DNA of 64,000 nucleotides from Mytilus galloprovincialis (GCF_965363235.1 NC_134841.1:74717723-74781722); one strand, 5' to 3'. Numbered from the stretch's first letter, positions 6,883 to 21,792 are shown. Numbers and translations: made by a program. Notes: generated by a model not told the origin, from the letters alone.

Positions 6883-8726
6883 TTTTATACGACCGAAAAA
6901 ATTTTAATTTTTTGGTCGTATATTGCTATCACGCGTCGTCGTCGTCGTCGTCCGAATACTTTTAGTTTTCGCACTCTAACTTTAGTAAAAGTGAATAGAA
7001 ATCAATGAAATTTTAACACAAGGTTTATGACCACAAAAGGAAGGTTGGGATTGATTTTGGGAAGTTTGGTCCCAACATTTTAGGAATTAGGGGCCAAAAA
7101 GGGCCCAAATAAGCATTTTCTTGGTTTTCGCACTATAACTTTAGTTTAAGTGAATAGAAATCTATGAAATTTTGACACAAGGTTTATGAACACAAAAGGA
7201 CGGTTGGGATTGATTTTGGGAGTTTTGGTTCCAACAGTTAAGGAATTAAGGGCCAAAAAAGGGCCCAAATAAGCATTATTCTTGGTTTTTGCACCATAAC
7301 TTTAGTATAAGTAAATAGAAATCTATGAAATTTAAACACAAGGTTTATGACCATAAAAGAAAGGTTGGGTTTGATTTTGGGTGTTTTTGTCCCAACAGTT
7401 TGGGAATAAGGGGCCCAAAGGGTCCAAAATTGAACTTTGTGTGATTTCATCAAAAATTGAATAATTGGGGTTCTTTGATATGCCGAATCTAACTATGTAT
7501 GTAGATTCTTAATTTTTGGTCCCGTTTTCAAATTGGTCTACATTAAGGTCCAAAGGGTCCAAAATTAATCTTAGTTGGATTTTAACAAAAATCGAATCCT
7601 TGGGTTCTTTGATATGCTGAATTTAAAAATGTACTTAGATTTTTAATTATTGGCCTAGTTTTCAAGTTGGTCCAAATGGGGGTCCAAAATTAAACTTTGT
7701 TTGATTTCATCAAAAATTGAATAAATGGGTTCTTTGATATGCCAAATCTAACTGTGTATGTAGATTCTTAATTTTTGGTCCAGTTTTCAAATTGGTCTAC
7801 ATTAAGGTCTAAAGGGTCCAAAATTAAACTAAGTTTTGATTTTAACAAAAATTAAATTCTTGGGCTTATTTGATATGCTTTATCTAAACATGTACTTTGA
7901 TTTTTGATAATGGGCCCAGTTTTCAAGTTGGTCCAAATCAGGATTCCATATCAAGTATTGTGCAATAGCAAGAAATTTTCAATTGCACAGTATTGCACAA
8001 TAGCAAGAAATATCTAATTGCACAATATTGTGCAATATCAATTAATTTTCAATTGGAGTTATCTTTCTTTGTATAGAATAGTAGTTGATAATATATGTTG
8101 GAAATTTGCCAGACATGACTATGATGTCATTTTCTATTTTTATTTGCCAATAACTTTATGTAAATAACTTCATTGGAAATTTGCCAATATAAAATGTTGC
8201 TGATGAAGCTTTTTTTTTCCTTATCTTATCTAAAATGTTTTTAGATAATGTATGTTGGACATTTGCCAGACATGACTATGATGTCATTTTCTATTTTTAT
8301 TTGCCAATAACTTTATTATTATAACTTCATTGGTGGTTTAAATTTTTCTCATTTCAGATTTCATAAATAAAAAGAAAATTTCTTAAAACATTTTTTTGAG
8401 AGGATTAATATTCAACAGCATAGTGAATTGCTCAAAGGCAAAAAAAAATTTTTAAGTTCATTAGACCACATTCATTCTGTGTCAGAAACCTATGCTGTGT
8501 CAACTATCTAATTTTAGATTTAAATAAGTTTGAAGAAGAAATCTTTAATTGATTTGTAAAATCTTGACATTTGTTTTGTGTAAAAAACCCATGTAATGTC
8601 AAAAATTTGATCACAATCCAAATTCAGAGCTGTATCACGCTTGAATGTTTTGTCCATACTTGCCCCAACTGTTCAGGGTTCGACCTCTGCGGTCGTATAA
8701 AGCTGCGCCCTGCGGAGCACCTGGTT
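6883..8726 (+). mobile_element. Composite non-autonomous element, copy 1 (about 1.84 kb), in a WD40-gene intron
   Basis: Same termini as the other three copies: 5' tttttatacgaccg...tttttggtcgtatattgctatcacg (a hairpin) then (GTC)n, and 3' ...cagggttcgacctctgcggtcgtataaagctgcgccctgcggagcacctggtt. The internal order is fixed: about 3 copies of a 160-bp sub-repeat (ttcgcactctaacttta...gggcccaaataagcatt), about 4 copies of a 120-bp sub-repeat (gggtccaaaattaaact...tggtctacattaaggtccaaa), a ttgcacaatattgtgcaatagcaag palindromic triplet, then atgttggaaatttgccagacatgactatgatgtcatt modules. Confidence 0.85.
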
Positions 8727-8902
8727 TAAGTTGGAAAAAAGTCATGATTTCGTTATTTAAAAGAAAAATAAAGGGTATAGGGTATCAATTCATGACTCAA
8801 AATCAGTTGATGCACAGCAAAAATCACATAAAAAGCTAAGGAACAGCACTTTTATTGTGGAAAAAAGTCATAATTTTGTTATTTTATCTATTTTAATTGT
8901 AG

Positions 8903-9006
8903 GATGGGAAATATTTGACAAGAAGCTCCATACAGCATCAGTAAGGTGTATCAAGTATGTTGGAGATGGAATGGTAGCAGCAGGATCAGATGATAATACA
9001 ATGACT
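8903..9006 (+). CDS. WD40 gene exon: (G)WEIFDKKLHTASVRCIKYVGDGMVAAGSDDNTMT
   Basis: Acceptor ttaattgtag ends 8902, donor ACT|gtaagt at 9007. Phase 1 in and phase 0 out. Confidence 0.8.
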
Positions 9007-9419
9007 GTAAGTAGAAATTGTAACAAAATATAATGCAGAAACAGTGAAATAGAGGGAGAATTTAGGAGGTAAACAATATACCATAATCTGTCAATAATTC
9101 TATGTCATTTAAACACATATTGTTCGAAAAAGTTGCTCAAAACAACAGTAGTAATAACATTCCTTTTGACTCTAATGGTAACTGGAACTGACAAATCATT
9201 ATAGGAATTTTAATATAAAAAAAGATGATGTGGTATAATTGCCAATGAGACAAATGTCCACCAGAAACCAAATGAAGTTGATATTAGCAACTGAAGGTCA
9301 AGTCCATATTTTTCTAGAATTTCAGATGGTTGACAAAACTTCTTGAATATGCATGACATATTTGCAACTAGACCTTTTATTGGGGTGAACAGTCATTGAG
9401 ATAATGATAAGGGGTGAGT

Positions 9420-18947: not shown

Positions 18948-19499
18948 GTAAGATAACATGCAATTCGTGTGTTATTGTCGATTTTAAAGATGTTAAGGTT
19001 TCATTAAGCAGAGTTGGTTCCTTATTCAGAATATCAATTGAGATTTGTATCAAAGGTTTATGTCAGGAATATCTTGAATGAGTTGAAAATTGGTGTGGAT
19101 CATCTATTTTTATGGCCACACAACAAAGTTTTCAAGGCAATACAGTTTTACCCTTATCTGTCATTCAGTCATTCTGCAACAAACAGTTATACAGACTTTT
19201 TTCTAAAGGACATCACATATTAAGCTGATTTTTTGGTATGTAAGTATGCTATGATAAGTTACAGATGGAGTTCTGCTCTGCTGATTTTTTCCAAAATTAT
19301 GGGCTTTTGAATTTGAAAATTTCCACTCCCTAAAATCAGCTTCAAGTTTTTATGTCAGCAGGGCCATATGTGTTGTTCAGACATGTTACTTCTCATGGTT
19401 TTGCTTGCGTTTTATATTATCCACAGCTTAGATCAAGTGTTTATTATTTATAATAGCTTGTAACTGTTTGTCTGTACATCTGTATTGTTTGTTTTTTAG

Positions 19500-19711
19500 G
19501 CAAATGAGCTTGCCAGTATGTCAGGACACGATGACAGAGTACTCAGTGTATCATCTGACGCACAGGGAAAATTGTGTACAAGCAGTCTTGACAAGTCTGT
19601 CCGTCTGTGGGCTCCTGAGTTGTCAACAACACCATCAGATGCAGGGCATAATGGTTCAGTTACATTTGTCAGTTGTATAGACAATGGAGCAGGTTTATTG
19701 ACTGGAAGCAG
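19500..19711 (+). CDS. WD40 gene exon: ANELASMSGHDDRVLSVSSDAQGKLCTSSLDKSVRLWAPELSTTPSDAGHNGSVTFVSCIDNGAGLLTGS(R)
   Basis: Acceptor tgttttttag ends 19499, donor AG|gtatga at 19712. GH..RVLSV...SSLDKSVRLW blade. Ends in phase 2. Confidence 0.85.
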
Positions 19712-19837
19712 GTATGAGATCAGCATAGATTGAAATAGAAAAAATAGAATAAATACACAAGACTACAATCCAATAAAATACTTGACTTATTTTTCTCCCA
19801 TTGTTGAGTGCATTATAATACCAGTTGTTTTTATACG

Positions 19838-21792
19838 ACCGCAAAATTTGAAAAATTTTTCGTCGTATATTGCTATCACGTTGGCGTCGTCGTCGTCCGA
19901 ATACTTTTAGTTTTCGCACTCTAACTTTAGTAAAAGTGAATGGAAATCTATGAAATTTTAACACAAGGTTTATGACCACAAAAGGAAGGTTGGTATTGAT
20001 TTTGGGAGTTTTGGTCCCAACATTTTAGGAATTAGGGGCCAAAAAGGGCCCAAATAAGCATTTTCTTGGTTTTCGCACTGTAACTTTGGTTTAAGTTAAT
20101 AGAAATCTATGAAATTTTGACACAAGGTTTATGACCACAAAAGAACGGTTGGGATTGATTTTGGGAGTTTTGGTTTCAACAGTTTAGGAATTAGGGGCCA
20201 AAAAAGGGCCCAAATAAGCATTATTCTTGGTTTTCGCACAATAACTTTAGTTTAAGTAAATAGAAATCAATGAAATTTAAACACAATGTTAATGACTACA
20301 AAAGGAAGGTTGGTATTGATTTTGGGAGTTTAGGTCCCAACAGTTTAGGAATTAGGGGCCAAAAAGGGACCCAAATAAGCATTTTTCTTGGTTTTCGCAC
20401 CATAACGTTAGTATAAGTAAATATAAATCTATGAAATTTAAACACAAGGTTTATGACCATAAAAGGAAGGTTGGTATTGATTTTGGGAGTTTTGGTCCCA
20501 ACAGAATAAGGGGCCCAAAGGGTCCAAAATTAAACTTTGTTTGATTTCATCAAAATTGAATAATTGGGGTTCTTTGATATGCCGAATCTAACTGTCATGA
20601 CTGTGTATGTAGATTCTTAACTTTTGGTCCCGTTTTCAAATTGGTCTACATTAAGGTCCAAAGGGTCCAAAATTAAACTTAGTTTGATTTTGACAAAAAA
20701 TGAATCAGTTAGGTTCTTTGATATGCTGAATCTAAAAATGTACTTAGATTCTTGATTATTGGCCCAGTTTTCAAGTTGGTCCAAATCGGGGTCCAAAATT
20801 AAACTTCGTTTGATTTCATCAAAAATTGAATAAATGGGGTTCTTTGATATACCAAATCTAACTGTGTATGTAGATTCTTCATTTTTGGTCCTGTTTTCAA
20901 ATTGGTCTACACTAAAGTCCAAAGGGTCCAAAATTAAACTTAGTCTGATTTTAACAAAAATTGAAATCTTGGGGTTCTTTGATATGCTGAATCCAAAAAT
21001 GTACTTAGATTTTTTATTATGAGCCTAGTTTTCAAGTTGGTCCAAATCAGGATCTAAAATTATTATATTAAGTATTGTGCAATAGCAAGTCTTTTCAATT
21101 GCACAGTATTGCGCAATGGCAAGAAATATCTAATTGCACAATATTGTGAAATAGCAATTTTTTTTTTTAATTAGAGTTATCTTTCTTTGTCCAGAATAGT
21201 AAGCAAGAAATATCTAATTGCAAAATATTGTGCAATAGCAAGATTTTTTTTTAATTGGAGTTATCTTTCTTTGTCCAGAATCAACTTAAATCTTTGTTAT
21301 ATACAATGTATATTCACTTTTTACTACCAACTGATAAATTAAAATTATCTTTACCATTCAGTGATAACAAGCAGTTTTTTTTACATCTTAATATTTTATG
21401 ATGTATTTAAATGAGTAGTTATTGTTGCAAACTCCATTAGAAATTTTAATTGAGATTAGTTTTGGAATAAGGGAAAGGGGGATGTGATTAAAAAAATTGG
21501 GTTCAATTTTTCTCATTTGAAATTTCATAAATATAAAAGAAAATTTCTTCAAACATTTTTTTGAGAGGATTAATATTCAACAGCATAGTGAATTGCTCTA
21601 AGAGAAAACAAAAATTTTAAGTTCATTAGAACACATTCATTCTGTGTCAGAAACCTATGCTGTGTCAACTATTTAATCACAATCCAAATTTAGAGCTGAA
21701 TCCAGCTTGAATGTTGTGTCCATACTTGCCCCAACCGTTCAGGGTTCAACCTCTGCGGTCGTATAAAGCTACGCCCTGCGGAGCATCTGGTT
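19838..21792 (+). mobile_element. Composite non-autonomous element, copy 4 (about 1.96 kb, most diverged)
   Basis: Same 5' terminus (tttttatacgaccgcaaaatttgaaaaatttttcgtcgtatattgctatcacg then (GTC)n) and 3' terminus (...cagggttcaacctctgcggtcgtataaagctacgccctgcggagcatctggtt). Confidence 0.8.

Follow-up and report, generated by a model that had tools for sequence, protein, structure and literature searches.

Background

Non-autonomous Helentrons (HINEs) are defined by subterminal inverted repeats of 11-15 bp, set in by ~2-4 nt at the 5' end and by ~38-60 nt at the 3' end (PMC4067079). HINE and DINE-1 elements have a 3' stem-loop 8-35 nt from the end and a T-rich target, while a microsatellite and tandem repeats are optional (PMC4067079). 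Some of them carry satellites. The eleven Cg_HINE elements of the oyster C. gigas, described by Vojvoda Zeljko et al. 2020, are of this kind (PMC7492417). In M. galloprovincialis the element MgE is reported from introns of HSP70. This paper is about a 64,000-nt stretch of the Mytilus galloprovincialis genome (GCF_965363235.1 NC_134841.1:74717723-74781722; hereafter the window, with coordinates counted from its start), where four copies of one repeat element lie in introns of a WD40-repeat gene. We argue that the four copies are one family of non-autonomous Helentrons carrying satellite-like arrays, and we put the probability of this at about 0.88.

Four copies in four introns of a WD40 gene

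The window is AT-rich eukaryotic DNA with a G+C content of 31%. Self-BLAST finds four direct copies, c1 to c4, all on the + strand. An earlier sequence-only reading had the same copies in place, bar the start of c4, which is at 19828 and not at 19838 (10 nt too far in). The copies and the part of the gene that holds them are as follows.

6882..8726, + strand: c1, 1845 bp, subfamily A, in intron 6594-8902 (80% of the intron)
11744..14015, + strand: c2, 2272 bp, subfamily A, in intron 11044-14045
14460..16872, + strand: c3, 2413 bp, subfamily A, in intron 14154-17089
19828..21792, + strand: c4, 1965 bp, subfamily B (no 154-bp array), in intron 19712-22091
6446..22155, + strand: ten-exon stretch of the WD40-repeat gene, exons 6446-6593, 8903-9006, 9692-9849, 10370-10475, 10945-11043, 14046-14153, 17090-17246, 18799-18947, 19500-19711 and 22092-22155
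14046..14153, + strand: WD40 exon between the c2 and c3 introns, 108 bp, acceptor tttctatttttag/GTG, donor AGT/gtaagt, phase 0 on both sides

The + strand has WD40-like open frames between ~1.4 and 29.5 kb. The ten-exon model has 435 codons without a stop, all of its introns are GT-AG, the phases match, and the WD40 repeats are regular. The concatenated exons, used as a protein query, return distant WD40 proteins only. Together with the self-BLAST this model confirms that four co-oriented copies with shared termini sit in four introns of one WD40 gene, as had been read from the sequence. The copies occupy 4 different introns out of 9 consecutive ones, in sense orientation, and each makes up 76-83% of its intron. 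The same introns minus the copies are 415-730 bp long, which is an enlargement of four- to six-fold. The gap between c2 and c3 is 444 bp; it contains the 108-bp exon, and the two copies are in separate introns. The 3' end of c2 is 30 nt upstream of the acceptor AG.

Identity among the copies is 89-98% by self-BLAST. It is 97.8% between c2 and c3, ~95.5% between c1 and either of these, and ~89-90% between c4 and c1-c3.

Structure of the element

We take c3 as the reference copy for the anatomy of the element, which runs in this order.

14460..14501, + strand: 5' terminus of c3, with a T run, TATACGACCGCA at 14464-14475, an A/T loop and the complementary internal repeat CGTCGTATA at 14493-14501; hairpin-forming (5' hairpin in the other copies: c1 6882-6922, c2 11744-11784, c4 19828-19869)
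14516..14555, + strand: (GTC)n-type microsatellite at the end of the left flank, with a length of its own in each copy (c2 11800-11842, CGT x14.3)
14567..15182, + strand: array A, 161 bp x3.8 by Tandem Repeats Finder (c1 6965-7428, c2 11855-12482, c4 19910-20504)
15178..15700, + strand: array B, ~130 bp x3.9 or 260 bp x2 (c1 7415-7933, c2 12467-12990, c4 20519-21062)
15716..15817, + strand: array C, 35 bp x2.9, containing the palindrome TTGCACAATATTGTGCAA (c1 7954-8055, c2 13006-13107, c4 21071-21164)
15849..16286, + strand: array D, 154 bp x2.8 with an inner period of 75-79 bp, subfamily A only (c1 8087-8385, c2 13139-13423)
16834..16872, + strand: 3' terminus of c3, with TGCGGTCGTATA at 16834-16845, the palindrome GCTGCGC-CCT-GCGGAGC at 16848-16864 and the end ACCTGGTT

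Each copy begins with TTTT and TATACGACCGCA, followed by an A/T-rich loop, (G/C)GTCGTATA, the motif TTGCTATCACG and the (GTC)n-type microsatellite. Each ends in TGCGGTCGTATA-AA-GCTGCGCCCTGCGGAGC-ACCTGGTT, with 1-2 substitutions in c2 and c4. The strings that bound the element are TTTTTATACGACCGCA... at 5' and ...TGCGGTCGTATAAAGCTGCGCCCTGCGGAGCAYCTGGTT at 3'. TGCGGTCGTATA is the exact reverse complement of the 12-bp TATACGACCGCA, so the earlier claim that the 3' repeat mirrors the 5' repeat is correct. Allowing 1-2 substitutions, in c1-c4 this subterminal inverted repeat is 4 nt from the 5' end and its reverse complement starts 39 nt from the 3' end.

The internal repeat (G/C)GTCGTATA is 17 nt 3' of the 12-bp subterminal repeat. 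Folded as single-stranded DNA, the predicted 5' hairpin has an energy of -9.6 to -10.5 kcal/mol with z of -2.7 to -2.9 for both variants of its loop (c3: -10.5, z -2.7). A second stem-loop, GCTnCGC-CCT-GCGnAGC, is predicted at the 3' end and stops 8 nt short of the terminus; it is present in c1-c4 and in six copies on metagenome contigs, which are described below. The 3' terminus is kept in all ten of the 3' ends available, these six among them. Its last letters are ...CTGG(TT), with the stem-loop 8 nt upstream. This is CTRR-like, but the following TT may be the element's own. The flank past ...CTGGTT is A or G in 4/10 copies. At the other end, each of the six available 5' junctions has exactly five T after a non-T.

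The order of the internal arrays is fixed. Tandem Repeats Finder gives A as 159-161 bp x2.9-3.9, B as ~130 bp x3.9, C as 35 bp x2.7-2.9 and D as 154-157 bp x1.8-2.8. The sequence-only reading was right that there is an ordered set of tandem sub-repeats, and these figures replace its units of 160 bp x3, 120 bp x4 and 70 bp x2-4. Similarity among the units of arrays A-D was looked for and none was found, so the units are mutually unrelated. Array order and orientation are the same in c1-c3. The fourth copy and two copies on contigs (L002 and L006) are alike minus array D, and c4 has an 84-bp duplication in its place. The view that the copies differ in module number only therefore has to be dropped.

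Independent insertion and polymorphism

The 500-bp flanks of the copies were compared by sensitive BLAST and nothing beyond chance was found. Similarity ends exactly at the element ends, and no repeat flanks the insertions of c1-c3. Public metagenome contigs were scanned with 25 bases of the 3' terminus. Six marine-metagenome contigs have the same 3' end, ...AGCAYCTGGT(T), and the DNA that follows is unrelated in each. Full-length copies of the c4 type are found in L002 and L006, where the 5' end, TTTTTATACGACCGCAAA, is likewise the same and the flanks are others. L003 and L004 share the 3' end too, in mosaic or deleted forms of the element. The terminus is absent from the bacterial and archaeal genome collection scanned. 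A lack of conserved termini elsewhere and identical flanks had been named beforehand as grounds for giving up the idea of a transposon; both were checked and neither was found. The insertions are independent, as had been supposed: the flanks are unrelated, the same termini recur in six contigs, and there is an allele that lacks c4.

That allele came from looking up the open frames of the window in public assemblies. At ~97.5% identity, Logan contig L007 (run SRR29152240) is colinear with the DNA to the left and right of c4 in the window, and it lacks exactly c4. The empty site reads CAGTTG-TTTTTTT-AAATGG, and the filled site CAGTTG-TTTTT-(ATACGACC...CTGG)-TTTT-AAATGG. Since the empty site is T7, the target is a T run and the duplicated host sequence is at most TT. 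The earlier statement that no target-site duplication is obvious thus stands, bar this ambiguity of two T. Another difference of the empty-site haplotype is a stretch of 12 additional bases, ACAACACTCAGC, placed 6 bp upstream of where c4 is inserted (L007 501-523 against window 19815-19827). This indel is either unrelated to the insertion or tied to it.

A different event is seen at c1. Contigs L009 and L010, from other samples, have a haplotype without 6722-8679. The missing piece takes in 160 bp of left flank and c1 itself, of which the final 47 bp survive next to an intact right junction and right flank. The breakpoints may share a microhomology of 2 nt (TC). This is read most simply as a deletion that came later and reduced c1 to a solo 3' end. 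From the empty site in L007 and the deletion in L009 and L010 it follows that c4 is a presence/absence polymorphism and that c1 is older and partly removed in some haplotypes. No empty site for c2 or c3 was found in the contigs from these look-ups; one of them, L008, stops short of the insertion sites.

The relationships among copies cut across the window. In the final 400 bp, the identity of c4 is 99.8% to L006 and 99.2% to L002, both unlinked, and ~91% to c1-c3. Here c2 and c3 match each other at 98.7% and the unlinked L005 at 99.0-99.2%; c1 matches c2 at 97.7% and L005 at 97.5%. Over its full length c4 is 97.1% identical to L006. With c4 nearest L006 and L002, and c2 and c3 nearest L005, the window copies are therefore not one clade and belong to at least two subfamilies. 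Going by these identities, two or more subfamilies appear to have been recently active, namely A (c1-c3) and B (c4). The closeness of c4 to L006 and of c2 and c3 to L005 looks like recent activity of a young, dispersed family with several insertions in the same gene.

The 5' end tells a different story. Its hairpin loop has two variants, one shared by c1 and c2, the other by c3, c4, L002 and L006, and this grouping conflicts with the similarity of the element body. Differences between c2 and c3 pile up in the first 100 nt; outside these the two copies are ~99% identical, bar one 153-bp array unit. Modules have evidently been swapped between subfamilies, to judge from such patterns.

Class and mechanism

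The features of a HINE are all found here: no coding, subterminal repeats, an internal repeat, a 3' palindrome, a microsatellite with arrays of fixed orientation, and a T-run target. With these hallmarks present, the sequence-only reading is upheld that satellite-like arrays are being carried by a composite non-autonomous transposon, a Helentron of the type known in bivalves. Open frames inside the copies reach at most 135 codons and lie in the repeat arrays, and they have no Pfam match. In the element region there is neither a tRNA nor an Rfam family at the gathering score.

We infer that an autonomous Helentron elsewhere in the genome supplies Rep/helicase/endonuclease in trans. This protein would recognise both structured ends, nick the DNA, and peel off or copy one strand. 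The strand would then be pasted into a T run, by a proposed rolling-circle chemistry that leaves no clear duplication of the target. The cargo would be the microsatellite and the four arrays, changing in length by slippage and unequal exchange, and modules would be reshuffled between subfamilies.

Several observations weigh against a HINE and must be considered. There is no Rep/helicase open frame in the window, and no autonomous Helentron with these termini was seen there. Each element has four arrays, where an oyster Cg_HINE has one, exceptionally two (PMC7492417). At c4 the filled site exceeds the empty one by two T, which would allow a 2-bp duplication of TT such as was once claimed for pearl elements. 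The five T at 6/6 of the 5' junctions also fit poorly with an empty site of T7 and nine T in the filled site. These can be reconciled only if there is a fixed offset of insertion in T runs, a run-length difference between haplotypes, or the loss of a few host T.

Two further classes were tried and rejected. The 5' TC and A/T insertion of a canonical Helitron do not occur, as the 5' end is a T run then ATACG and the empty site is T7. A short interspersed element (SINE) or other retroposon does not fit either, given that there is no tRNA or Rfam family and that the element closes in a G+C-rich hairpin where such a class would have an A-rich or simple-repeat tail.

Alternative explanations

One could argue that the element is a miniature inverted-repeat transposable element (MITE), that is, a deletion derivative of a DDE cut-and-paste element with inverted ends and a 2-bp TT (AA) duplication. 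The 12-bp inverted repeats near both ends suit this, as do the two T by which the filled c4 site exceeds the empty one, and the early pearl literature spoke of MITE-like elements with an AA duplication. However, the repeats are subterminal and asymmetric, being 4 nt from one end and followed at the other by a 27-nt tail that bears a hairpin. The 5' side has five T in 6/6 junctions while A or G follows CTGGTT in 4/10 copies, so there is no symmetric duplication. The class as a whole has since been moved to the Helentrons, on the ground that autonomous partners have the same structures (PMC4067079). A MITE is thus very improbable. An intragenic segmental duplication of exon-intron units, or gene conversion, would do away with transposition altogether, and we give it next to no credence. 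The host gene is made of WD40 repeats, a tandem duplication of an exon-like piece is present at 2199-3160, and c2 and c3 are adjacent and 97.8% identical, all of which would suit duplication. But similarity stops at the element ends and the 500-bp flanks share nothing. The same element with the same ends is found in unrelated DNA in six other contigs, and one allele is precisely without c4. These facts already refute duplication.

A separate matter is why the HINE copies are clustered. The sequence-only reading considered four hits in one gene and on one strand unusual, and it proposed local hopping or orientation-dependent selection. Four copies and a related 3' fragment are indeed all on the + strand within 21 kb, and none of the c1-c4 family is in the other 35 kb. 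For four uniformly placed copies, p is ~0.04 for falling within such a span of the 64-kb window, and c2 and c3 are only 444 bp apart. However, this is a post-hoc figure for an example that was picked as striking. Local hopping also predicts that the copies in the window should be each other's closest relatives. They are not: c4 is of subfamily B, c2 and c3 are as near or nearer to L005, and at least two subfamilies without a common clade are present. Four of four in the same orientation has a two-sided p=0.125, or 0.06 with the fragment at 28107-28268 counted, and the sense strand of the gene is no richer in T runs than in A runs. Since the copies are not one clade, the orientation has p=0.125 and the T and A runs are equal, the reading of the cluster as unusual is not supported. 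We therefore find it unlikely that the cluster was made by local hopping or by a bias of integration towards this region or strand. A regional or strand bias in insertion as such is possible but unsupported. Helentron integration could in principle be directed to one strand, for instance at single-stranded DNA exposed in transcription or at a replication fork, and would then yield co-oriented clusters of independent insertions from different subfamilies, like the five + strand ends in the 21 kb here; we hold this to be slightly more doubtful still. The IS200/IS605 family is the comparison for integration into exposed single-stranded DNA.

Two sources of a sense bias were examined and rejected. 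It does not come from more T runs on the sense strand, as T and A runs are equal. Nor does it come from poly(A) or splice signals, given that neither strand of the element is richer in AATAAA/ATTAAA, strong donor or acceptor-like motifs. Orientation-dependent selection loses its footing with this lack of a strand difference and with the p=0.125 for four of four.

Related repeats and other features of the window

A 3' end that resembles that of the element lies farther along the window.

28107..28268, + strand: 3' end of a related, different HINE family, with the subterminal repeat TGCGGTTGTAT and the palindrome GCTGCGC-TCA-GCGAAGC

It is 77.6% identical to the tail of c3 and 88% to metagenome contig L001, and the predicted stem is kept with another loop. 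A solo 3' fragment had been noted at 28100-28270 before; it is real, but at 77.6% it belongs to a related and different family, not the same one. The repeat block 25560-28270, of which it is part, lies in the next large intron. At ~25745-25790 this block has a left-flank-like CCCATCACTTGGCGTCC... tract with a GTC-type microsatellite, followed by a 330-bp unit x2 at 25791-26619 and a 161-bp array x5.8 at 26704-27641. The latter array was compared with array A and no relatedness was found. Parts of the block recur inverted at 34265-34731. A 5' inverted repeat was looked for in the block and not found. The block may be one or two further HINE-like elements.

Within the WD40 gene there is another array at 2199-3160, with a 122-bp unit (or 243 bp) x7.9. 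Every unit has an acceptor-like tract and the start of a WD40 exon, ELHTFRGHANAITSVCFVGQSMLCSAGLDN, and the rest of the exon (...AVSVWHIDQGHR) follows the last unit only. This is either a tandem amplification of an intron/exon boundary or an assembly artefact. The intron between exons 17090-17246 and 18799-18947 has G+C-rich clusters of short repeats at 17549-17772 and 18254-18420 (GGTCCGACCGTACGAGTAT-like, periods 19 and 46 bp), from which long spurious open frames arise on both strands. Two smaller intronic pieces vary between haplotypes. A 205-bp piece at 9449-9653 is missing in L008; it is partly similar to 24611-24719 and 62999-63108 and is probably another small repeat. A 145-bp piece at 19251-19395 is missing in L007.

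Beyond the WD40 gene, an 880-bp unit forms a direct repeat x2 at 41954-43712 with 98% identity. A spermine oxidase-like gene follows on the + strand at 47987-57902, with exons at ~47987-48175, 51374-52291 and 57738-57902. Its long exon, 51374-52291, is 100% identical to M. galloprovincialis XP_076104235.1, which marks the window as Mytilus DNA; the figure for M. edulis is 99.3%, and three further Mytilus species give 98.0-99.0%.

Comparison with known elements

DINE-1/HINE elements of Drosophila and the mite Metaseiulus are like the mussel element in structure; similarity of sequence is not to be expected. The position and length of the subterminal repeat agree, as do the internal repeat (of the DINE-1 type), the 3' stem-loop, the T-rich target with a variable number of T and the absence of coding (PMC4067079). 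They differ in that an autonomous Helentron partner has been shown for them (PMC4067079), while none was found in the mussel window. The pearl elements CvA, CvE and CvG of Crassostrea virginica and DTC84 of Donax trunculus are, by their descriptions, built of the same modules: a left flank, a microsatellite, core repeats of 160 bp in up to ~five copies and a right flank, with modules reshuffled between elements (PMC3879986). These have single arrays, and they were first classed as MITE-like with an AA duplication (Gaffney et al. 2003; PMC3879986).

MgE is the nearest by host. It is from the same species or genus, is found in gene introns and is described as pearl/HINE-like. MgE is also described as being without a microsatellite (Satovic and Plohl 2013, PMC3879986), whereas every copy here has a (GTC)n tract. 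The mussel family is possibly related to MgE and perhaps already partly described. There is one more lead of this kind. Kourtidis et al. 2006 (Genome 49:1451) are reported to have described, along with MgE, the satellites Mg1-Mg3 with units of 169, 260 and 70 bp. These resemble the periods of 161, 260 (2 x 130) and 75-79 bp found here, a resemblance of lengths alone, which makes it a lead and not a test. A literature search with the terminal sequence strings returned unrelated primer matches only, and among the papers searched none is specifically on Mytilus Helentrons.

The closest match in anatomy is Cg_HINE. Both have an 11-12-bp 5' subterminal repeat, a complementary internal repeat and a short degenerate GTC-type microsatellite, then central repeats of ~160 bp in 2-5 copies of fixed orientation, and a 3' subterminal repeat with a palindrome (PMC7492417). 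Both go to a T-rich or TT target without a clear duplication and are intronic, with several copies in one gene (bindin in the oyster; PMC7492417). The species differ, and the oyster microsatellite is mostly a tetranucleotide (PMC7492417) while that of the mussel is a trinucleotide. The core of the terminal repeat (CGTATA/TATACG) is not in the oyster supplementary tables searched (PMC7492417), bar two matches inside array monomers.

Insertions such as these enlarge introns, feed the heavy presence/absence variation of mussel genomes and offer population markers. The class, the architecture and the intron habit have all been described before, and no new question is opened; what is new is a well-bounded case in Mytilus. 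It adds one more instance to the known link of dispersed satellite-like repeats with rolling-circle transposons in bivalves; copies such as these are an ordinary feature of bivalve genomes. Compared with the systems above, it offers what looks like a young family with two subfamilies, an observed empty-site allele and one copy nearly deleted. Where Cg_HINE has one array, exceptionally two (PMC7492417), the mussel element carries four different, unrelated ones in series (161, ~130, 35 and 154 bp).

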